From a plasmid, in sequence record CP104424.1: a stretch of DNA of 64,000 nt, one strand, 5' to 3'. Under the pieces are notes generated by a model, which had not been told where the DNA came from, did not search any database, and was given only the letters and a program-made list of their open reading frames with translations. Each line of letters begins with the position of its first letter. Position 1 is the first letter of the stretch. Made by a program: the position numbers and the translations under genes. Shown piece after piece: positions 1-48,930 of this stretch.

Positions 1-154
1 GCACAGAGAGAAGCGGAAAAAATAATGGTGAGTGAAAAGATATATTTTATCATTTCATCGTCTCCTTTTTATTTATGAAAACAGGTGCAATTAATATTGC
101 GAAATAATAACGTTCAGGTGTTTTTTTTTGGCAGTGTGATACTTCACGCAGGGC

Positions 155-835
155 ATGAATTCCAGTACGCTGATATCCGTGATGATACGGCAACAGATAT
201 CCGGTGACGGTATGCAGGAACATATTGATTATCAGATTGAGAAATATCAGTTCAGGGCCAGGAATGAGTCACCGCGACTGATGCGCCAGTGGGAAGATGT
301 CATGCGTGAATGCCATGATACCGGAGCAGGAGCCAGGGAGCGGCTGCGGATTGCCTTACTTAATGTTGATTATGTGACCAGTTTTGAACTGCCGTTTCGT
401 CTGCTGTTAACCCGGACACCGCAGATGATTGACAGCGTGCGGCGGGAATGGCAGCTCAGCCAGAAAAAAGTCGTATTCAATGAGCGGCAGCGGGGATGTG
501 TATACAGTCTGCAGAATGACTTATCCGGCGTGCCGGATAGCTTCAGTTACAGTCTTGCGACGCGAATACGGCGGGCGGACAGCTATGGCATGACGACGCG
601 TTGTTTCACTGATATAGCCGGGCAGGTTAAAGCCCCGACAGCACGGCTGAAACTGGCGCTGGAAAGCGGGTTAATTGTCACCGCGCTGGATGGTCTGTTC
701 TGGCTTGGTATTCAACGTATTGCCGCAGATGTGCAGCGGCTGCGTCAGTCCGGAATGACAATCATCACCCGGGATGTTGAGGTCTCAGACTCGCTGACCG
801 GAACCACACGGGTTGTTTCCGGGTACAGCCTTTGA
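155..835 (+). CDS. hypothetical protein, 226 aa, no recognisable motif
   Basis: ATG-initiated ORF in the variable region upstream of pnd; no TM segment, signal peptide or catalytic motif recognised. Confidence 0.4.
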   Translation: MNSSTLISVMIRQQISGDGMQEHIDYQIEKYQFRARNESPRLMRQWEDVMRECHDTGAGARERLRIALLNVDYVTSFELPFRLLLTRTPQMIDSVRREWQLSQKKVVFNERQRGCVYSLQNDLSGVPDSFSYSLATRIRRADSYGMTTRCFTDIAGQVKAPTARLKLALESGLIVTALDGLFWLGIQRIAADVQRLRQSGMTIITRDVEVSDSLTGTTRVVSGYSL

Positions 836-1251
836 TTTATGCAACAAAGTATCGCAGCGTCGAATATGAGCTATGGCCAGATTTTTGTTAATCGTGGTTG
901 TTGCAACATGTAAGGCGAATGACCACACTATTCTGGCACGCTCGTAATCATGCTGAAATTCTGCTTCCTGTCCTGCCGTGATGAGTTCCGACCAGGACAT
1001 ACGGCGAAGTGTATGTCTGTCAGTAATATCCGTCATGAGCTCTCAGCCTCCTCCTTCGTATTTCCGTCAGAAACACAAACGCCCCGCAGAGAAAATTCGC
1101 CAACATTCTCCTTTTTAATGGCGCGCAATGCATCGCGGCAGGCCCGTTCGGTATGAAAGGCCTGGCTGTGCACCGCCAGTGTGGGCTGACGGGCATCACC
1201 GGAAGAGACATTAAAGGGCGATGAAAGCCAGAAAATCAGTAGCCACATGCG

Positions 1252-1635
1252 TCACACCTCGTCCTTTTTATGCGGGTATCTGGACAGAATATTGAGCGCC
1301 TGTAATGGCGCTTCATGCATTTCACGGATACAACGGGCATCGGTGATATTTTCCCGGTAATGTGTGGTTTCCAGCATCATATGATGCATATGGAGCATCC
1401 GGGCCAGGGCTGCGCGGAGTTCTTCAATATGTTGTTCATGGGAATGCTGGCGGGGCTGTATCCGGCAGAGAGGGATAACCTCCACATCATCCGGGTGCGC
1501 GCGAAGCCACGCGTCAGTGACTGCAATGTCGTCAGTGTAAAACCATGTGCCGGATGTCCCGTTGGCCAGAAAACGCATTTTCCAGGTTTCTGGGGTGGCG
1601 GTTGTGTTGTTATCTTTCATGGTGCTACCACTCAT
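1252..1635 (-). CDS. hypothetical protein, 127 aa
   Basis: ORF only; His/Met-rich C-terminal half; no family recognised. Confidence 0.3.
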   Translation of the reverse strand: MSGSTMKDNNTTATPETWKMRFLANGTSGTWFYTDDIAVTDAWLRAHPDDVEVIPLCRIQPRQHSHEQHIEELRAALARMLHMHHMMLETTHYRENITDARCIREMHEAPLQALNILSRYPHKKDEV

Positions 1636-1910
1636 TCAACAGGCTTAATGCTGTCCAGGCGCAGTCTGCTCAGACTGTCGTGGCTGCCACAGCGGCGTCC
1701 AGTGCTTTTGCTGTAGCACTCCTGCCCCCTGATACACCATGCCGTTGGCGTTTCGTAGAGGCTGACACGTCGGGTTTTATCTTTAATGATGAGAAGCCCG
1801 GTGTGAGTTTTTGTCTTTTTCATCGGTGGGGTACAAACGCAGAAATTTTGTTGTCATCAGTTTTTGCCTGCAGAGGCCTGAAAAGACAGCGTTTTCAGGC
1901 CCTGTTCAGG

Positions 1911-2153
1911 TTAGTGAATATTCTTGCCTGGCTTTTCGGCAATATCAATCCCCTGAAGTTGCATGGATATCCCATGCCCATTGAGCATCTGGCTGTCCAT
2001 GGAATGGATACCGCATGTCATCATCAGGTTGTAACAAAGCGTACTCAGCATGGTGAGCGCCTCTTCTGAGGATTTACAATGTGTATTCATAAGGGCCAGA
2101 AACTGCTCAACAACATCCGGGTTAATGCTGGTACTGTGTATTTCATCCTTCAT
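1911..2153 (-). CDS. hypothetical small protein, about 80 aa (ATG at 2153; track ORF 1911..2231 starts on GTG)
   Basis: Internal ATG is preceded by AAGGA at 6-nt spacing on the minus strand; the upstream GTG start has no RBS. Confidence 0.35.
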   Translation of the reverse strand: MKDEIHSTSINPDVVEQFLALMNTHCKSSEEALTMLSTLCYNLMMTCGIHSMDSQMLNGHGISMQLQGIDIAEKPGKNIH

Positions 2154-2334
2154 GATGTGTCCTTGTTTTTTATTATTTTGCATTTCAGAAAATAACACGA
2201 TGCCTGCAGCCCGGAAAACAGATGTGTGCACACGTAGTCACTTTCCGGCTTTATTTCTGTCCCTGACACAAAATACGTGGTGGCATGAAAAGGATTGTGG
2301 CGGACAGGAAAACGATTAGAATAGCGGCGGGCGC

Positions 2335-2628
2335 TTGAGGCTGTATGCCGAAAGCGTTTTGTGGACGGCATGTAGCAGAAAGCCCCAGGCGATTTTTTTA
2401 TCAATCAACCCAGGGCCCACTGTAATGCCTCAACAACATTATAGTAGCCCGATGACGGCCGAAAGGCAATGGAGGGGCTGCGATGCCACAACGAACGTTT
2501 TTAATGATGTTAATCGTCGTCTGTGTGACGATACTGTGTTTTGTCTGGATGGTGAGGGATTCGCTTTGCGGATTTCGTATCGAGCAGGGAAATACGGTGC
2601 TTGTGGCAACGTTAGCCTACGAAGTTAA
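2335..2628 (+). CDS. pndC: pndC (mok-like leader frame overlapping the killer gene)
   Basis: ORF overlaps the Hok-family pndA frame in another reading frame, as mok overlaps hok; true start uncertain. Confidence 0.45.
   Translation: MRLYAESVLWTACSRKPQAIFLSINPGPTVMPQQHYSSPMTAERQWRGCDATTNVFNDVNRRLCDDTVFCLDGEGFALRISYRAGKYGACGNVSLRS
2395..2470 (-). ncRNA. pndB: pndB (Sok-like antisense RNA); position inferred
   Basis: Hok/Sok-type loci carry an antisense RNA complementary to the mok/hok leader; placed from locus architecture, promoter not mapped. Confidence 0.3.
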
Positions 2629-2635
2629 ACGTTAA
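2483..2635 (+). CDS. pndA: PndA, Hok-family membrane toxin (50 aa) of a post-segregational killing locus
   Basis: Translation MPQRTFLMMLIVVCVTILCFVWMVRDSLCGFRIEQGNTVLVATLAYEVKR is a canonical Hok/PndA sequence with TM helix and conserved SLC/EVK motifs; below the 60-aa track cutoff. Confidence 0.85.
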   Translation: MPQRTFLMMLIVVCVTILCFVWMVRDSLCGFRIEQGNTVLVATLAYEVKR

Positions 2636-2646
2636 CGGGCAACACG

Positions 2647-2667
2647 GCGGCAGGACATCTGCCGCCG
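2647..2667 (+). terminator. perfect 8-bp stem / 5-nt loop (GGCGGCAG-GACAT-CTGCCGCC) just 3' of pndA
   Basis: Inverted repeat seen directly; consistent with the 3' fold-back/terminator of hok-family mRNAs; no T-run. Confidence 0.35.
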
Positions 2668-4310
2668 GATTGTTGCGAAGGCTGACCTCAATGCGCCTTG
2701 TTTGTCTTTTTTACCGGACGACTGCTGGTTGCTGCTGTCCGGCAGCTATTATTTTTTCCGTCCTGTGCGTCATCAATTATGACAGTCGCTCTCATTTGGT
2801 TGTCTCTGGTTAGATGTATTATTAGATATTTTCGGGGTAATTCGATAAAAGTTATCCACTTCAGCACCAGACTGAATGATATATGCAATAAGATCTAAAC
2901 GATGAATCTCGTATCGTGTACGTAACTCCATCATTTCACGCCATGCTAAAATCCTTGATGTTTTCAGTTCAGCCTCTATAAGTTTCCATGTGTTTGTTGA
3001 GATGGCATGTTCTTCCAGCTGACGTAACGAGAACCTATCACTAATGACCAACCATCCCCATCCTCGAGTATGTGCCCATTTGCGACCTGCATTACTTTTT
3101 ATTCTCGTGAGACTCAAGGTCATTCGGTCTGTTGGCTTCACTTCCATAAGTAGGCACCGACCATCAACTGTCGCAATGAGTAAATCTGGATAGTATTTTT
3201 TTGATTTGTTTTTAAAACAATATGGAATAGAAAATGGTTGTTCTTGATAGAAAAGAACCTGATCGCAACATTCTAATAGATTCATTATTTTAAACTCAAG
3301 CCCTGATTCGTACTGGACTGTACGACCTAATTTTTGAGAGTAAAAGAATCCAGATATGTCAGTATCATTAACCGCTCTCTGTGAACATAGCTGTTCTACG
3401 GGGGGAGGAGGTGCGATATATTTTGGCCAATGTGTATTGTCTAGCCATTTACTGAATATGAACTCAACTCTTTCTTTCTTGATTCGGGCTCTTTCCTGAG
3501 CGTGAGCGTGTGCTAATTCTGCTCTTCGTTCACGTAACTTCTGCTTTTGTAATTGTGATATTAATGAGAGCGAATTTTTTATTTCATCTCGTCTTGCTTT
3601 AGGAATGCCTGCGGCAAAAATGATGAATTTGGCGGCTAACTCAGAGGATGTAACGAAATCCCGATGAACAATACGATAAATCCATACTGCTATATCATAT
3701 GGTGAATTACCTATTGAGTTAATAAGGGCTTTAAGGCAAGCTCCAGGTGTCCCTTCATAGCGAGATTTAGCAGCTAGTAAGCCAAGGGCTCGTTCCTGAA
3801 GTTGTCTTACCCTTTCACGGGAAATTCCTAATTTGACGGCAATATCTGCCAGAGAATGAGGTGAATCATCTGTGCCGAGTCGCATTAGAAGAATATATTG
3901 ATGTCGTTTATTAGATAAACTTTCGATAGCAGAATGAATTAGCATAATGACATCATGTTCATCGGCTATATAATCTTTAAAATCTGTATTGGGTTGGCAG
4001 AGGGGGAGTGGGGTATTTTGTTTAAAACTATTCTTTTGTATTTCAACTTTATCATGAGCAATTGTTTTTGCAGTGCTCAATGATATTAAATTATTGATGA
4101 TACTATTGTGTTCTTGGCGAGGAATCTTGTTGAAGTAATTGCTGAGATCATTCACCGTGTTTATATCGTTGAACTCAAGAAACTCAGAAGGAAGCAGGCG
4201 TTTGATTGCTCCACGTATTCCCCCGGACGATCGTTGATGTGTTTGAGTAAGTTTTTTTAGCGAGACGCCCTCCGCTATGGATACGAGAAGACGCTGTAAC
4301 TCTTCAGTAT

Positions 4311-4319
4311 TCCATGGAG
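4311..4319. repeat. IS1 target-site duplication, left copy (TCCATGGAG)
   Basis: Identical 9-mer directly abuts each IS1 end. Confidence 0.9.
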
Positions 4320-4374
4320 GGTAATGCTGCCAACTTACTGATTTAGTGTATGATGGTGATTTTAAGGTGCTTGC

Positions 4375-4650
4375 GTGGCTTCCATTTCCATCAGATGTCC
4401 TTCCTGCTCCGCTACTGAAGGCGTGGTGCGTAACGGCAAAAGCACTGCCGGACATCAGCGCTATCTCTGCTCTCATTGCCGTAAAACATGGCAACTACAG
4501 TTCACTTACACCGCCTCTCAGCCCGGTACGCACCAGAAAATCATTGATATGGCCATGAATGGCGTCGGATGTCGCGCCAGTGCACGCATTATGGGCGTTG
4601 GCCTCAACACGGTTTTACGTCACTTAAAAAACTCAGGCCGCAGTCGGTAA
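4375..4650 (+). CDS. insA: IS1 InsA (transposition inhibitor, N-terminal part of the InsAB' transposase)
   Basis: [43 protein letters not shown]... matches IS1 InsA with its zinc-finger CxxC pairs. Confidence 0.95.
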
Positions 4651-5072
4651 CCTCGCGCATACAACCGGGCAGTGATGTGATTGTCTGCGCTGAAATGGAC
4701 GAACAGTGGGGCTACGTCGGTGCTAAATCACGTCAGCGCTGGCTGTTTTACGCGTATGACAGGATACGGAGGACGGTTGTGGCGCACGTCTTCGGTGAAC
4801 GCACTCTGGCCACACTGGAGCGTCTTCTGAGCCTGCTGTCGGCCTTTGAGGTCGTGGTATGGATGACGGATGGCTGGCCGCTGTATGAATCACGCCTGAA
4901 GGGAAAGCTGCACGTTATCAGCAAGCGTTACACTCAGCGCATTGAGCGACATAATCTGAATCTGAGACAACATCTGGCAAGGCTGGGACGGAAGTCACTG
5001 TCGTTCTCAAAATCGGTGGAGCTGCATGACAAGGTCATCGGGCATTATCTGAACATAAAACACTATCAGTAA
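4569..5072 (+). CDS. insB: IS1 InsB' frame (expressed as InsAB' via -1 frameshift at the A6C run near 4626..4632)
   Basis: Translation ...[21 protein letters not shown]...[10 protein letters not shown] matches IS1 InsB; the TTAAAAAACTC slippery motif is present. Confidence 0.9.
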
Positions 5073-5087
5073 GTTGGAGTCATTACC

Positions 5088-5096
5088 TCCATGGAG
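5088..5096. repeat. IS1 target-site duplication, right copy (TCCATGGAG)
   Basis: Identical to 4311..4319. Confidence 0.9.
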
Positions 5097-5342
5097 TACC
5101 ATGTCGTGCTGGAAAATTGCTGCGGGATTCAGACATGATTTTATCTTTATGTTTTCTAGGTACTGCCTTGAGTGTGTGGATATGATAATTATTTATAATG
5201 ATATTGTTATCTTTTATAGATAACTGATATGCAGAATTGTATTGATTTTGTCTACAGTGGGCAAGACAGTGCTAAGAATTTGTGGGGAAAACATAGAGAC
5301 TCCATGCGGCGTCCTGAGATAGACGGCAGACAGGCATTCTGC

Positions 5343-5377
5343 CTGAAAAGAAAAAGCCGGTTCAGAGAAAACCGGCT
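5343..5377 (-). terminator. rho-independent terminator downstream of excA
   Basis: Stem AGCCGGTT/AACCGGCT followed on the minus strand by a T-rich tract (TTTTTCTTTTC). Confidence 0.55.
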
Positions 5378-5409
5378 GACGGATTATCGTCTAACAGTTG
5401 ATAGCTACC

Positions 5410-6063
5410 TCAAAATACTTCTGCAACAGGAACACCGGCAACTTTTTCCCACTCTTTAACCCGATACCGGATCATCTGTGGGAAACGTTCCTTGTACTCA
5501 TATCCACGTGCAGCCATGGTGTGCATGGTGTTGGCCAGCGTCCTTGATGAGATGCCGGAGATCTCAAGAGGAATCATCGGCAGACTCACATAGGTGGTGT
5601 GGATTTCCAGCTTGCCGTCCTCAGCAACCGTGCGGGTAAAGTTGTGAATATCCAGACCAATTACATCCATCACATTGTTTGGATAAATACGCACATACAG
5701 CATGGTGCCGTTTTTAATGTCGATCCCGAAATAACAACTCTTCGAGAATGACAGTTGCTCATAATCGCTGGTCGGCGCAAAGGGACTGCTTTCTTTTATC
5801 TGCTGAACAACCTGCTGGACTTTCTTTTTCTTCGCTCTGGTTTTCATATATAGCCAGAGTGATGGGAGTATTAATAGGAGCCAACTGCCATAAGTATATA
5901 GATATGCTTGAATATCTGTTTCTATATATGGTTCTGTAAGCATCATACCGGTAAATCCTAGAGAACATAGTAATAAAAAAGGAACACCAAATATAAAATA
6001 AGCAGTGCGGATAAGGTAATAATATGCCCACCAGGAAGGATATCTGCTTTTTGTTGTGTTCAT
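5410..6063 (-). CDS. excA: ExcA-like entry (surface) exclusion protein, 217 aa, two N-terminal TM helices then a K-rich linker
   Basis: AT-rich ORF immediately downstream of traY, where R64 excA sits; size and membrane topology fit. Confidence 0.6.
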   Translation of the reverse strand: MNTTKSRYPSWWAYYYLIRTAYFIFGVPFLLLCSLGFTGMMLTEPYIETDIQAYLYTYGSWLLLILPSLWLYMKTRAKKKKVQQVVQQIKESSPFAPTSDYEQLSFSKSCYFGIDIKNGTMLYVRIYPNNVMDVIGLDIHNFTRTVAEDGKLEIHTTYVSLPMIPLEISGISSRTLANTMHTMAARGYEYKERFPQMIRYRVKEWEKVAGVPVAEVF

Positions 6064-6150
6064 AATAAACCTCCATATTCACCTGAATGTATTTTAATCT
6101 CTTCAGGTGAATATGGCAATGGTGTTTTAGTGGTTTTTCGATATTTTCAT

Positions 6151-8316
6151 TTATTGTTTTATTCCGTCTTTATCATCTCTATTAATATTTTTCAGTTTTT
6201 CTTCACGAACGCCAGGTGTTCTGCGCATATTGGTATTACCTCCGGCAATAATATCTTTGACTGAAGAAACCATATTCCCCAGCATATTAACACCGTCACG
6301 TCCGCCCAGAAAATTAATTACATGGTCAGGCAGATAAGCCTGAAGCGCAAAAACGGCTGCAACCAGTGTGGTACAGGCGCGGGCATAAATCATCAAAAAT
6401 CCCGCCATGCTGAACACGCCCGTCACAGAGTTTATCTGGACATTCATCAGTGCAGCAGCATACAGCGCATTCAGGATTGTGCCGCCGGCCACGATGGCGA
6501 CTGATGCAAAAAAGAACCCGAACACCATCAGCAGCGGTCTGATCATGCTGTCTATCAGGTAGATGTAACCGTAAGCGGCCCGGCTTCCCCGGTCCTGACT
6601 TGTTCCCAGATGGGTGGCGGCCCACAGGGGGCCAGCAGCACATCCAATCAGTACGCTGACTATCCAGTTGCCGATGCCGGTCATCCAGAAGATAAACGGG
6701 ATAAACGGCAGGTAAATGGATAACGAAAAACCGGCACAAAACAGCAAAAACAGCAGGAAGTAGAGTGGTGGTGCGGATGCTTCCAGAAAAGCCTTTGCGG
6801 CGTCAGATAATCCGCTGACGGCATTGACCAGTCGACCAAAAACGGAGTTGCTGCCGGCCGTGGAAAGTACCCTGACGGTGGTATAACCCGCCCAGATGGT
6901 TTCGGTCGTAACCATGGTGTAATCGCCAATGTTTTTCATTTTTATCAACGGATTTAGTTGATTAGTTGTGGTACCTGTACCGCTCAGATAAGTGGCTGTC
7001 CAGTTAGTCATTCTTGTTAGGTTAAACCCAATCAATTTTAAGATTGCTGATTGAGGGTCTTGAGTTTTAGATGCGTGGTATTCACTGGCAGAGGTGGCTG
7101 TTCCCAGTGCAGGAGTATACGCTGAGTTCTGTAGCTGTGCCTGGTAAGCCCCCTTGACTTCCTTCAGGAATTCCGTATCCCCGGCTTCGCCCAGTGACGA
7201 GACGCCACTCACAGTAGGAGCGCGGTTGGCCAGGTCTTCCAGTCGCTGGTTGGCGGTGGCAAAGGTCTGGTACCAGGCACCCAGGGCAACCCAGCCGTAG
7301 GTGGTCAGGTAGGATTTCAGCTGCTCCCTGCGCTCAGTTTCTGCGTTATCTGCCGGCAACGCCTTCTGCACCGTTTCTTCATACCGGTTGGCTGCCTTCT
7401 GAATACGGCTTTCAATATCCGGCAGGTTGCCGTTACCCGTGTCGCGCCGGGTCCGGTATGCCGACACAAATTCCTGCGCCGCGCTGTCCAGGTCACGGAG
7501 CATGGTATCCATGGCGGAGCGTTGTGCCGTCAGAACCCCCTGATATTCCGTTTCAATGAAGGGATTGAAAAAATGGGCCAGCGCGGACTGCTTGTTACTG
7601 CCGTTTCCTTTCACGGAGAGACTCACACTCCCGCAGGTGGCGCTGCCATTTGAGACGGTGACGGTATATCTGCCATTCTCTGTCCGTGAGGATTCGCTCA
7701 TGGGCGGCGTTGATGAACGTGCGGTACGGTTAAAGTCATCGAGGCCCGTATTCATGGCGTGTTTGCACAGTTCCATCTCCAGAATTCCCCGTGCTGCCGT
7801 GCGGGTGGAGACATGTACTGGCTGTACGGTCATTGAATAGCCTTCAGCAATGTTTTCTGCCGCTGTCTGAACCATGATATTGGCGGAACCGATGCCCATG
7901 ATGGATGCGCCCCACAGCATGACCAGTTGCGCCAGACTCCAGCCGGAAGCGGTGGGCACAATCATCAAAAATCCACTCACGACACTGAGTATGCCGACGA
8001 CGTCCCGTCCGTTGTTAAAGACACTGCCCTGGTGTCCCGTGCGGACAGCATGACGGATACCAATAAACAGAAACCAGACTATCCCCATCGTGGCGATAAT
8101 TGCGTTAAACACCATGAACAGGTTGCCAATGATGGTGTTGCTGCTGGCTGTCAGGGGATTTGTGACCACATCACCAAAAATGGTGACCAGTGCCTGGCGC
8201 GACAGGTCATCCGGATTGGTGGCGGCACTCACAATGTCCTGATAGGTGACGAAAGCCTGTGCAGGTACGGCAGCCAGCGCCAGACCTGCACTCAGTGCTC
8301 TGGGTATGATTTTCAC
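6151..8316 (-). CDS. traY: TraY-like integral membrane transfer protein, 721 aa
   Basis: Signal-like N-terminus, large periplasmic-type region and a multi-TM C-terminal half; first gene of the traY-to-traL block next to excA. Confidence 0.65.
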   Translation of the reverse strand: MKIIPRALSAGLALAAVPAQAFVTYQDIVSAATNPDDLSRQALVTIFGDVVTNPLTASSNTIIGNLFMVFNAIIATMGIVWFLFIGIRHAVRTGHQGSVFNNGRDVVGILSVVSGFLMIVPTASGWSLAQLVMLWGASIMGIGSANIMVQTAAENIAEGYSMTVQPVHVSTRTAARGILEMELCKHAMNTGLDDFNRTARSSTPPMSESSRTENGRYTVTVSNGSATCGSVSLSVKGNGSNKQSALAHFFNPFIETEYQGVLTAQRSAMDTMLRDLDSAAQEFVSAYRTRRDTGNGNLPDIESRIQKAANRYEETVQKALPADNAETERREQLKSYLTTYGWVALGAWYQTFATANQRLEDLANRAPTVSGVSSLGEAGDTEFLKEVKGAYQAQLQNSAYTPALGTATSASEYHASKTQDPQSAILKLIGFNLTRMTNWTATYLSGTGTTTNQLNPLIKMKNIGDYTMVTTETIWAGYTTVRVLSTAGSNSVFGRLVNAVSGLSDAAKAFLEASAPPLYFLLFLLFCAGFSLSIYLPFIPFIFWMTGIGNWIVSVLIGCAAGPLWAATHLGTSQDRGSRAAYGYIYLIDSMIRPLLMVFGFFFASVAIVAGGTILNALYAAALMNVQINSVTGVFSMAGFLMIYARACTTLVAAVFALQAYLPDHVINFLGGRDGVNMLGNMVSSVKDIIAGGNTNMRRTPGVREEKLKNINRDDKDGIKQ

Positions 8317-47219: not shown

Positions 47220-47485
47220 TTTTCCTCCTGTGGCAGGTCAGTCAAACAACATTATGGCGTGAAGCTTCCGCTTCTTTAATTGTCAGAAGAAGCATATCGT
47301 CAGTCATCAGAAGACAAGGGGATGTCTGCAGGAGGGGATGATAACAACAGAAGCCTCACGCCGGAATGCGCTTTATGACAACCGGAGAGGACGGATAATC
47401 AAAAATGGGACATCCACATCAGCAAACCGCGATTTGCGAAAAAAAGTCAGCGGAGAGTGGCTGCCGTTGTGGCTGTCCCGGTATT

Positions 47486-48148
47486 TCAGTGTAAAAGCAG
47501 ACTGTTGTCCATGCCCCATTCCTCTTCCGCTAAACCTGAATGGCCCACATGAAGAATGCGTGACAGCATATTTCTGCCGCTGCCGTTCAGACTGCATTCG
47601 CGCCCGTGTGCGAGCATAAAACCTTCATCCCGGAATATCTCTTCAACCTCAGACGTGTTGATGGTGGCCGGATGGATTAATGAAAATGCCACCGGTCTGA
47701 TCATTCTGCCCGTGGTGGAAAAGGTGTCCCCGGTGCTGTTCAGCTGCAGGATATGACGTTTCCCGGTCTGTGCGCGGGAAAGTGTCTCACTCAGTAACTG
47801 GTCATTCCATGCGCACGTGCCAATCTGCCATCCCAGACTCCTGCACGTGGCAAGAGCCGAGCGGAAGCGGTACAGGTCGTATAATGCTGCGTTATTGCCA
47901 CTTTCCAGCAGTGATTTCAGGGTGTTTGCTACCGGTATGTCTGAATTGGTGGCCAGCAGTTTTCGCAGGGTAGTGAACTCTTCAGCCATTCCTCTGAACT
48001 CGCGCATCTGACGGGCAGTGTCAAGCCAGTTCAGCAGGTAACGCCGGCGACGCCGTTCGTTGTTTATGTTGTCCGGGGCGGTGGAGAGTGCTTCGAGCAT
48101 ATTCTCCAGTAACAGAATGACAGGGTTTTCCTGGGATAGAATGGTCAT
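47486..48148 (-). CDS. traC: TraC-position regulatory protein, 220 aa
   Basis: ORF between the NusG-like traB and the pil operon. Confidence 0.45.
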   Translation of the reverse strand: MTILSQENPVILLLENMLEALSTAPDNINNERRRRRYLLNWLDTARQMREFRGMAEEFTTLRKLLATNSDIPVANTLKSLLESGNNAALYDLYRFRSALATCRSLGWQIGTCAWNDQLLSETLSRAQTGKRHILQLNSTGDTFSTTGRMIRPVAFSLIHPATINTSEVEEIFRDEGFMLAHGRECSLNGSGRNMLSRILHVGHSGLAEEEWGMDNSLLLH

Positions 48149-48288
48149 AAAGGCGTCCTGAAAAAATGCCCGACAGCCGCTCTCCGTACACCCTCAGGTG
48201 TCACCGGTGCCGGGCATTGTGGAAACAGAAGGGAAAAAAATCCCGGCCATAAAGGCCGGGAAAAGTCGTCAAATTAAGACAGCAATTT

Positions 48289-48930
48289 TCATGTCAACGC
48301 TCCGTCATCAGATACCAGGTGCAGGAGCAGGGCGATCCTCGACTCCGGCAGAGGCTGTGCATCAAGCCGGAGGAGGTACTGGTAACGCGCTTTTGTCAGC
48401 CAGAGGGTGGAGGCAGCATCCAGCTCCTCCCTGGCTGCCGGATTGAGCGCAGGATCCGGGTACACTTTCATCAAAGACTGAACGATATCCTCCCTGACGG
48501 TTTTGATTTCACCGGCCATTTTCACGAAGTCCAGAAAGGCACTGTGACGGCGAAGGTGAGTGAAGCTGTGGCTTTCGGGGTCTGCTTTCAGGAAAAAGTA
48601 ACCGGGAAACACGGCGTGTATATGTCGACGGTAACCACAGACTTTATCCGTGCGGCGGACCTTTTTCAGTATCAGGGGTGTCCAGGGAAGGACGTGTTGT
48701 TCGGAAAGCCAGGAAAAGAGATGTTCGCGGTTTTTGCCGGCAGGGATGTACTGTGCCAGATACCAGTTGCGTTGATGTAATTCACTGATATTCAAAATCC
48801 GGAACGCTCCGCGAAAATCGATCCCCGCAGGGGGGCTTCGATGTTGTTGTGAACGGCGAATACATAAAGCATGTGTCGGAAACAGCGGCTGACCCACGTT
48901 CAGCCTGGCCTGCAGTTCTGACAGGCACAT
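48289..48930 (-). CDS. traB: TraB, NusG/RfaH-like transcription antiterminator paralogue, 213 aa
   Basis: NusG N-terminal-domain signature (NWYLAQYIPAGKN...VFPGYFFLK) and a KOW-like C-terminus. Confidence 0.55.
   Translation of the reverse strand: MCLSELQARLNVGQPLFPTHALCIRRSQQHRSPPAGIDFRGAFRILNISELHQRNWYLAQYIPAGKNREHLFSWLSEQHVLPWTPLILKKVRRTDKVCGYRRHIHAVFPGYFFLKADPESHSFTHLRRHSAFLDFVKMAGEIKTVREDIVQSLMKVYPDPALNPAAREELDAASTLWLTKARYQYLLRLDAQPLPESRIALLLHLVSDDGALT

Follow-up and report, generated by a model that had tools for sequence, protein, structure and literature searches.

In the window analyzed here, a 64,000-nucleotide (nt) stretch of plasmid DNA (sequence record CP104424.1), the minus strand between pndA (2483-2635) and excA (5410-6063) carries a gene that is split by the insertion sequence (IS) IS1. 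The unbroken gene, known as pCT_066 from the IncK plasmid pCT, would encode a protein of 528 amino acids (aa) in which, as profile comparisons and a structural model confirm, the helix-turn-helix (HTH) of sigma-70 region 4 is joined via a long helix to a TnsA-type PD-(D/E)xK domain with its E/D/ExK residues intact. In this work we describe this accessory gene of the IncK/B/O/Z plasmids, and weigh the proposal that its product is a stand-alone endonuclease acting in conflicts between mobile elements; this is the reading that we favor, and we give it about an even chance of being right.

The IS1 copy is 768 bp long (4320-5087, plus strand), has 23-nt terminal inverted repeats, and includes insA (4375-4650) and the insB frame (4569-5072). 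It is flanked by a 9-bp target-site duplication, TCCATGGAG, with the left copy at 4311-4319 and the right copy at 5088-5096 (repeat family D5). When the reverse complements of 5097-5136 and 2773-4319 are joined, a single open reading frame (ORF) of 528 aa is obtained on the minus strand, with its ATG at 5136 and a TGA at 2775-2773. An earlier sequence-only reading of this DNA had quoted several motifs from such an IS1-free reconstruction, and all of them are found in the reconstructed protein (HSLADIAVKLGISRERVRQLQERALGLL, SGLEFKIM, YYPDLLIATVDG and LLMEVKP). The 3' part of the gene (2773-4319, minus strand) carries codons 15-528 and the TGA stop and is 100% identical to pCT; the 5' part (5088-5136, minus strand) holds codons 1-16 and runs on into IS1. 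Since this 5' fragment consists of MSESRSNFPARHGTPW plus one IS1-derived residue (R) followed by a stop, the gene is broken after codon 16 and, judged from the reading frames, the copy in the window is inactivated by IS1. The exact IS1 junction had no match in PLSDB or in the RefSeq complete E. coli genomes. A promoter-like site (TTGGCA-16 nt-AATACT, extended by TG) lies on the minus strand at 4333-4306, across the left end of IS1 and the adjoining gene, and an ORF at 2773-4494 exits IS1 antisense to insA and joins the gene in frame from codon 15; the disrupted allele may give a fusion or an N-terminally altered product.

Positions 139-4319 and 5088-6300 of the window are 100% identical to pCT (NC_014477.1), in which the intact gene is annotated at 47259-48845 with WP_000004564.1 as its product. 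Two insertions are the sole differences between window 1-6300 and pCT: the IS1 in pCT_066, which is present in the window only, and an ISSso4 of the IS21 family, which pCT carries at the point matching window 139-144 and the window does not. Because the homology to p135-1, an IncK2/Z plasmid that does not carry the gene, covers window 1-2721, ends there and restarts at 5322, the gene can be delimited as part of a lineage-specific cassette (2722-5321, minus strand) that occupies the slot between excA and pnd. This cassette includes the gene, 185 bp upstream of it and about 50 bp downstream, and measures 1823 bp without IS1 and one copy of the target duplication. The sequence-only reading had described the site between pnd and excA as AT-rich, and the guanine-plus-cytosine (GC) content is indeed 0.34-0.43 in the gene region, whereas most of the flanking windows reach about 0.5 or more. 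It had also placed the gene where related backbones carry trb genes, which is wrong for this lineage: trbA and trbB of pCT lie about 7 kb to the left. The order excA, gene, pnd (hok-type) is fixed in IncK1 (pCT), IncK2/Z and IncB/O plasmids. The slot itself is variable, given that other I-complex plasmids do not have the gene there, and in plasmids without it small ORFs, a DinQ-like toxin or a second pnd copy are found. In p135-1 the slot (L103 3402-4275) contains two tandem Hok/Gef (pnd-type) genes, the duplicated segments sharing 82% identity; the site between excA and pnd is thus a hot spot of small toxin genes as well.

The location directly downstream of excA and traY, conserved in IncK1, IncK2/Z and IncB/O plasmids, could suggest a factor for transfer, establishment or entry exclusion tied to the neighboring tra and exc genes, an explanation that we consider barely probable. 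The gene is set apart from excA by a terminator-like hairpin with a T-run after excA (5355-5377, minus strand), which would insulate it from the tra operon, and by promoter-like sites of its own in the upstream region (5137-5321, minus strand), at 5264-5236 (TTGCCC-17-TACAAT) and 5210-5182, both of which are consensus matches only. Most homologues are chromosomal and distant from conjugation genes, and IncI1-type relatives transfer without the gene. In addition, a pCT_066::aph knockout did not differ from the wild type in plasmid stability, in conjugation to E. coli and Salmonella, in host growth and biofilm formation, or in competitive index (PMC4083329). Since this mutant conjugates as the wild type, the gene has no essential donor-side role in transfer, and donor-side transfer functions are already largely refuted. 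The candidate role in establishment put forward from the sequence gains no support from the knockout, and the suggestion of a trbA-like transfer factor has to be dropped given the unchanged conjugation and the lack of similarity to TrbA of pCT (BLASTP, E 1.7).

Among 5426 complete E. coli genomes the gene was found in 255, plasmid-borne in every case, and in 49 of these carriers as a partial copy only. Decay alleles include the IS1 insertion of the window, an IS2 insertion, a frameshift and truncations; because of these alleles and the partial copies, the gene behaves as dispensable cargo. On some plasmids of about 150 kb (ecoli_genomes hits H140-H142) 267-bp 5' remnants persist that are labelled 'RNA polymerase subunit sigma-70'; in them a former sigma-factor label survives as an annotation fossil. 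That label goes back to Cottell et al. 2011, who listed pCT_066 as a 'putative sigma 70 factor' (PMC3377399), whereas RefSeq names WP_000004564.1 a 'TnsA endonuclease N-terminal domain-containing protein'. The same fusion has been mentioned in passing for M. abscessus (PMC9934374). Our literature search found no functional study of the family, and the gene is not mentioned in the 2026 transcriptome paper on pCT. The architecture is therefore catalogued without an assigned function, and the term uncharacterised, which the sequence-only reading had applied to it, holds for its function and fails as regards notice of the gene.

The domains of the protein were delimited by profile searches and on an AlphaFold2 model computed from the family alignment (mean pLDDT, the predicted local distance difference test, of 88); all coordinates in this paragraph refer to the minus strand. 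The sigma-70 region-4 domain comprises aa 134-198 (3766-3960), including the recognition helix SRERVRQ (aa 180-186, 3802-3822). It is matched by Pfam Sigma70_r4 (PF04545) at aa 150-193 with 36.2 bits, the gathering score being 24.1, and a profile of 25 family sequences finds region 4 of primary sigma factors (sigmaA/RpoD) in the PDB with an E-value of 7e-16; the likeness spans regions 4.1 and 4.2 and extends into the C-terminal helix. Of the double label given to this HTH by the sequence-only reading, sigma-70 region 4 or LuxR-GerE, only the first part stands, as the GerE-type model is not matched by the protein. A helical spacer follows (aa 205-307, 3439-3747), modelled as a helical domain at aa 205-250 and then, in place of the proposed Lys/Arg/Glu-rich coiled coil, as one predicted 54-residue helix with that composition (aa 254-307); this spacer may mediate dimerisation. 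The TnsA-type PD-(D/E)xK catalytic domain comprises aa 330-442 (3034-3372), is modelled as an alpha/beta domain at aa 337-440, and is matched at aa 366-440 by Pfam Tn7_TnsA-like_N (46.6 bits, gathering score 26.5). As had been read from the motifs, it bears the TnsA_N-type catalytic signature: when aligned to the TnsA of a CRISPR-associated transposon (CAST) the E...D...ExK residues fall in register, with the codons of E355 at 3295-3297, D392 at 3184-3186, E406 at 3142-3144 and K408 at 3136-3138. The C-terminal domain (aa 445-510, 2830-3027) is winged-helix-like, with three helices and two short strands in the model; it occupies the position of the C-terminal domain of TnsA, the Foldseek alignment to TnsA covers about 225 columns, and Pfam TnsA_C has no match in the protein. 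A transposase subunit is the closest solved structure. Thus profile search, model and Foldseek support the two folds that had been expected, sigma70_r4 and a TnsA_N or restriction-endonuclease-like domain. At the N-terminus the model shows a three-helix HTH-like domain (aa 15-56, 4192-4317), Myb/SANT-like by eye, followed by more helices and by a disordered linker at aa 102-122. Its family consensus is RHG.PW..EE...L...I..G..L.EL..RHQRT.GGI; no Pfam match was obtained for it. Comparison of the N-terminal, sigma-4, spacer and winged-helix segments with hhalign revealed no internal duplication.

This architecture is not a peculiarity of the plasmid. A word-based search yielded 66 homologues, mostly of the same architecture, from Enterobacterales, Xanthomonas/Stenotrophomonas, Streptomyces/Kitasatospora and Archangium; the alignment of 25 sequences used throughout was drawn from Enterobacterales, Xanthomonas, Streptomyces, Kitasatospora, Archangium and metagenomic sources. 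When only the nuclease and winged-helix region (aa 310-528) served as query, an exhaustive search gave 2207 cluster representatives at E<=1e-3, 414 of them at E<=1e-10, and the best 150 of the 2207 were scanned with hidden Markov models (HMMs) made from the family alignment. Among these 150, the sigma-4 domain was present in 105 of the 109 representatives of at least 340 aa and the N-terminal domain in 26 of the 109. The family also occurs in Brachybacterium, Frankiaceae and Neobacillus, and is spread over at least four phyla. The N-terminal domain is missing from the short forms of about 400 aa, and in the family as a whole the median spacer between the sigma-4 and nuclease domains is 131 aa long. 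By these comparisons the plasmid protein extends a core of about 400 aa and belongs to the long forms. The invariant parts of this core, as delimited by alignment and model, are the HTH of sigma-70 region 4, some 130 aa of helical spacer, the TnsA-type catalytic domain and the winged-helix-like tail. Other long forms, P0051 and P0056 from Streptomyces/Kitasatospora, have an additional C-terminal segment (...AGGWTR.QLA.WGV.WP.PKGWK..., alignment columns 770-824). The HMM of the N-terminal domain also matches the C-terminal end of a few representatives, and the small module thus seems to be mobile among family members.

Conservation is concentrated in the two functional sites. In the 25-sequence alignment the residues Y-E351-S352-x-x-E355, E373-Q374-P375, Y389-x-P-D392, E406-x-K408 and K421 are invariant and make up the complete catalytic signature; E182, R183, R185 and Q186 of the HTH are invariant as well. 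The residues by which E. coli sigma-70 contacts the -35 element (RpoD numbering; the sigmaA alignment displays the same motif) all have a counterpart: R554, R562, T572, L573 and T583 map to R152, R160, T169, L170 and S180, and R584, E585, R586, R588 and Q589 map to R181, E182, R183, R185 and Q186. Each mapped residue is kept in at least 21 of the 25 sequences (at least 84%). Given the conserved residues and the coupling in 105 of 109 representatives, the fusion of sigma-4 and nuclease domains is old, obligatory and under purifying selection.

The retention of the -35 contacts, together with the sigma factor-like name given by NCBI and by the authors of the pCT work, could be taken to mean that the protein is a transcription regulator or an alternative sigma-like factor whose HTH controls plasmid or host genes, the nuclease-like domain serving only for DNA binding or oligomerisation. 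This is very unlikely in our judgement. Neither Sigma70_r2 nor Sigma70_r3 is present in the protein or in any of the 25 family members, which leaves no means of core binding or -10 recognition, and since regions 1.2, 2 and 3 are all absent the protein cannot act as an initiation factor; a sigma factor in the proper sense was accordingly discarded. The NCBIfam sigma matches concern region 4 only and are far below their cut-offs. An invariant, full catalytic signature would be unexpected in a purely structural domain, and the knockout left growth, biofilm, conjugation and fitness unchanged (PMC4083329). A subunit of Tn7 in the functional sense was also rejected, as TnsB and TnsC are not found nearby and the score of the protein is below the NCBIfam TnsA-like cut-off (46.8 bits for TnsA_like_Actin, cut-off 110). 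Both labels, 'sigma factor' and 'TnsA', are misleading as functional statements.

The genomic neighborhoods outside the IncK-type plasmids point in another direction. In every context the gene is solitary, with an upstream region of its own of 300-670 bp, no conserved partner gene was found in any context examined, and the location is often an integrase-bounded island or a plasmid. In Pectobacterium the gene comes directly after Gabija (GajA, E 9e-269, and a UvrD-type GajB) and ahead of three unknown genes and McrBC. In Xanthomonas cannabis it adjoins Lamassu LmuB, a SIR2 protein and GmrSD, and at the same chromosomal site of a second Xanthomonas an IS and satellite-type AlpA/DUF3987 genes. 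In Salmonella BrxA-BrxB-BrxC-PglX lie 3 kb from the gene, in another enterobacterial integrase island it stands amid ThsB, GajA-like, PIN, HNH and NACHT-like genes, and on a Providencia plasmid it follows BovA of Borvo. The copy of Mangrovibacter is in an integrase island at smpB, that of M. abscessus rides as cargo in a 22.5-kb element that has three tyrosine recombinases, and the Streptomyces copy has no defence context. Thirteen further loci came from metagenome and viral contigs: one has PrrC and a type I restriction-modification system, one has PglX-PglZ-BrxL immediately upstream, and the remaining ones have conjugation genes, IS110 elements, integrases or plain housekeeping genes. Overall, a system recognised by PADLOC lies within about 6.5 kb of the gene in at least 7 of about 23 independent contexts. 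Neighbors were checked with PADLOC and Pfam, and the batch scans give family counts, so that not every hit is assigned to a locus; a profile scan of the genome contigs with the full-length alignment was of no use for neighborhoods, since it is keyed on the sigma HTH and its matches are nearly all genuine sigma factors. The collection of phage genomes contained a single full-length homologue, located within a recombinase element inserted in a prophage, for which reason the family member is not a phage gene; IMG/VR contained three loci with a homologue.

Three features of these contexts deserve separate mention. The three co-directional genes between the homologue and McrBC in the integrase-bounded Gabija island of Pectobacterium (L002 12150-17274; 734, 643 and 327 aa) have no Pfam or PADLOC match and are a candidate unknown defence system. 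In the metagenome contig Ga0209347_1002710 (L171 78-8058), where PglX-PglZ-BrxL immediately precede it, a homologue of 472 aa begins inside the end of a crude BrxL ORF call, whose match ends at position 505 of the 698 of the model; as far as can be read from this overlap, the gene may have inserted into, or replaced, the 3' end of a BREX locus. Finally, a leader of about 150 nt upstream of the gene (9850-10000 in L002, L088 and L095) is shared by the copies of Pectobacterium, the Providencia plasmid and Salmonella, whereas the window copy does not conserve it. Since it is conserved although the neighbors differ, this non-coding leader travels with the gene, and it might hold a regulatory element.

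With this distribution, the defence role that the sequence-only reading had listed among its candidates gains support, and the conflict endonuclease becomes the explanation that we favor. According to this proposal, the protein, probably dimerised by its long helix, would dock on DNA via the sigma-4 HTH, which keeps all the residues by which sigma-70 reads the -35 element, helped by the N-terminal HTH-like and winged-helix domains; the TnsA-like site (E355, D392, E406, K408) would then cut nearby DNA. The outcome would be the restriction of incoming phage or plasmid DNA, or the death of the infected cell, and the gene would be a dispensable cargo of plasmids and defence islands. Nuclease activity, DNA target, dimerisation and defence role are what we infer from domain content, model and neighborhoods.

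Several points weigh against this proposal. The adjacency to defence systems is no more than suggestive: about two thirds of the contexts examined have no recognised defence system, the Streptomyces locus and several metagenome loci resemble ordinary chromosomal neighborhoods, hot spots for mobile elements gather cargo of many kinds, and the enrichment, given without a background rate, is only qualitative. The protein itself matches none of the models in PADLOC-DB v2.0.0, a comparison that reaches no further than the releases of 2023; the sole hit is a weak one to SspB (E 4e-4, 17.8 bits). Self/non-self discrimination is not evident, as there is neither a methylase partner nor an immunity gene, and without tight regulation cleavage directed at -35-like sequences would be toxic. 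When 300 nt of upstream sequence were searched for the gene and for 10 homologues, a TTGACA-type site was found once, in L091 only, which gives no hint that the gene regulates itself through -35-like operators.

The weak discrimination between self and non-self of the DNA-docking model motivates a different view of the sigma-4 domain, in which it would not read DNA but act as a decoy for phage factors that appropriate sigma region 4 (T4 AsiA-type, G1 ORF67-type) and for anti-sigma factors, or would tether the protein to the beta-flap tip of RNA polymerase. The TnsA-like nuclease would then be set free or switched on when a phage takes over transcription, making the protein a guard or decoy immune sensor, and a decoy would solve the self/non-self problem. 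In keeping with this, the domain is far closer to region 4 of primary (group 1) sigma factors than to a generic HTH, it is coupled to the nuclease in nearly all representatives, and its structural neighbors include sigma-4 in complex with anti-sigma factors and with a phage protein (4g6d). However, the best-conserved residues are those that contact DNA, so that plain DNA binding is the most economical explanation; the position of D581, which matters for the binding of sigma-70 region 4 by its partners, is a G in 21 of the 25 sequences; and the family is present in phyla whose phages have no known AsiA-like factors. On balance we regard the decoy or tether as quite unlikely.

The mobility of the gene calls for a further alternative, namely a selfish mobile nuclease, either a homing-endonuclease-like gene or a domesticated or orphaned TnsA-type nuclease, that spreads or persists through its own DNA cleavage and is of no benefit to the host element. 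A solitary gene with patchy distribution and atypical GC, a cassette of about 1.8 kb that moves with its own upstream region, the presence in plasmids, integrase islands and the three-recombinase element of M. abscessus as well as beside IS elements, the likeness to a transposase subunit as the closest solved structure, and the frequent decay seen in the E. coli carriers would all be in line with it. Nevertheless, no TnsB/TnsC or other transposase is consistently adjacent, the borders of the cassette show neither terminal repeats nor target duplications, and the plasmid copies are at least 99% identical and all occupy the same place, a sign that they are inherited vertically along with the backbone. 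The strong purifying conservation across phyla also fits a selected function. We therefore consider the selfish nuclease unlikely, yet it is the alternative to the conflict endonuclease that we take most seriously.

If the protein is a defence nuclease, it would be a single-gene system that brings sigma-70 region 4, as an unusual targeting or sensing module, into the plasmid-borne immune repertoire; in the literature searched we found no description of region 4 as the sensor or targeting module of a defence nuclease. The gene rides on globally spread IncK/B/O/Z resistance plasmids and has carried a misleading sigma label since 2011, and such an activity, if true, could influence phage therapy and plasmid competition in Enterobacteriaceae.

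Among known systems, PADLOC, PHROGs and NCBIfam offered no informative family beyond the two domains, and the comparison has to be made domain by domain. With the primary sigma factors (RpoD/SigA) the protein has in common the HTH of regions 4.1-4.2, with RERxRQ and the R554 and R562 contacts; it differs in the absence of regions 1.2, 2 and 3 and in its fusion to a nuclease. MzaA, a sigma-70-family protein of the multi-gene MZA anti-phage system (NF041931), is weakly matched by the region-4 part (E 1.7e-6, 27 bits, cut-off 800) and has no TnsA-like domain. The PD-(D/E)xK domain with its E/D/(Q/E)xK residues is shared with the TnsA of Tn7 (PDB 1F1Z/1T0F) and of PseCAST, to which the family protein adds about 330 N-terminal residues with HTH domains. 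In contrast to Tn7, no TnsB, TnsC or Tn7-like element surrounds any family copy; TnsB/TnsC-type genes were found neither in the 10 annotated contexts nor among the 25 commonest Pfam families of 97 neighbors in the 13 metagenome loci. In its way of life the family resembles type IV restriction enzymes (GmrSD, McrBC-associated nucleases) and the Rpn nucleases (PMC10400941), which are likewise stand-alone genes of defence islands and mobile elements, PD-(D/E)xK-type, without a methylase partner and often lost or disrupted. Unlike in those single-gene nucleases, the predicted sensor or targeting module is here region 4 of sigma-70.

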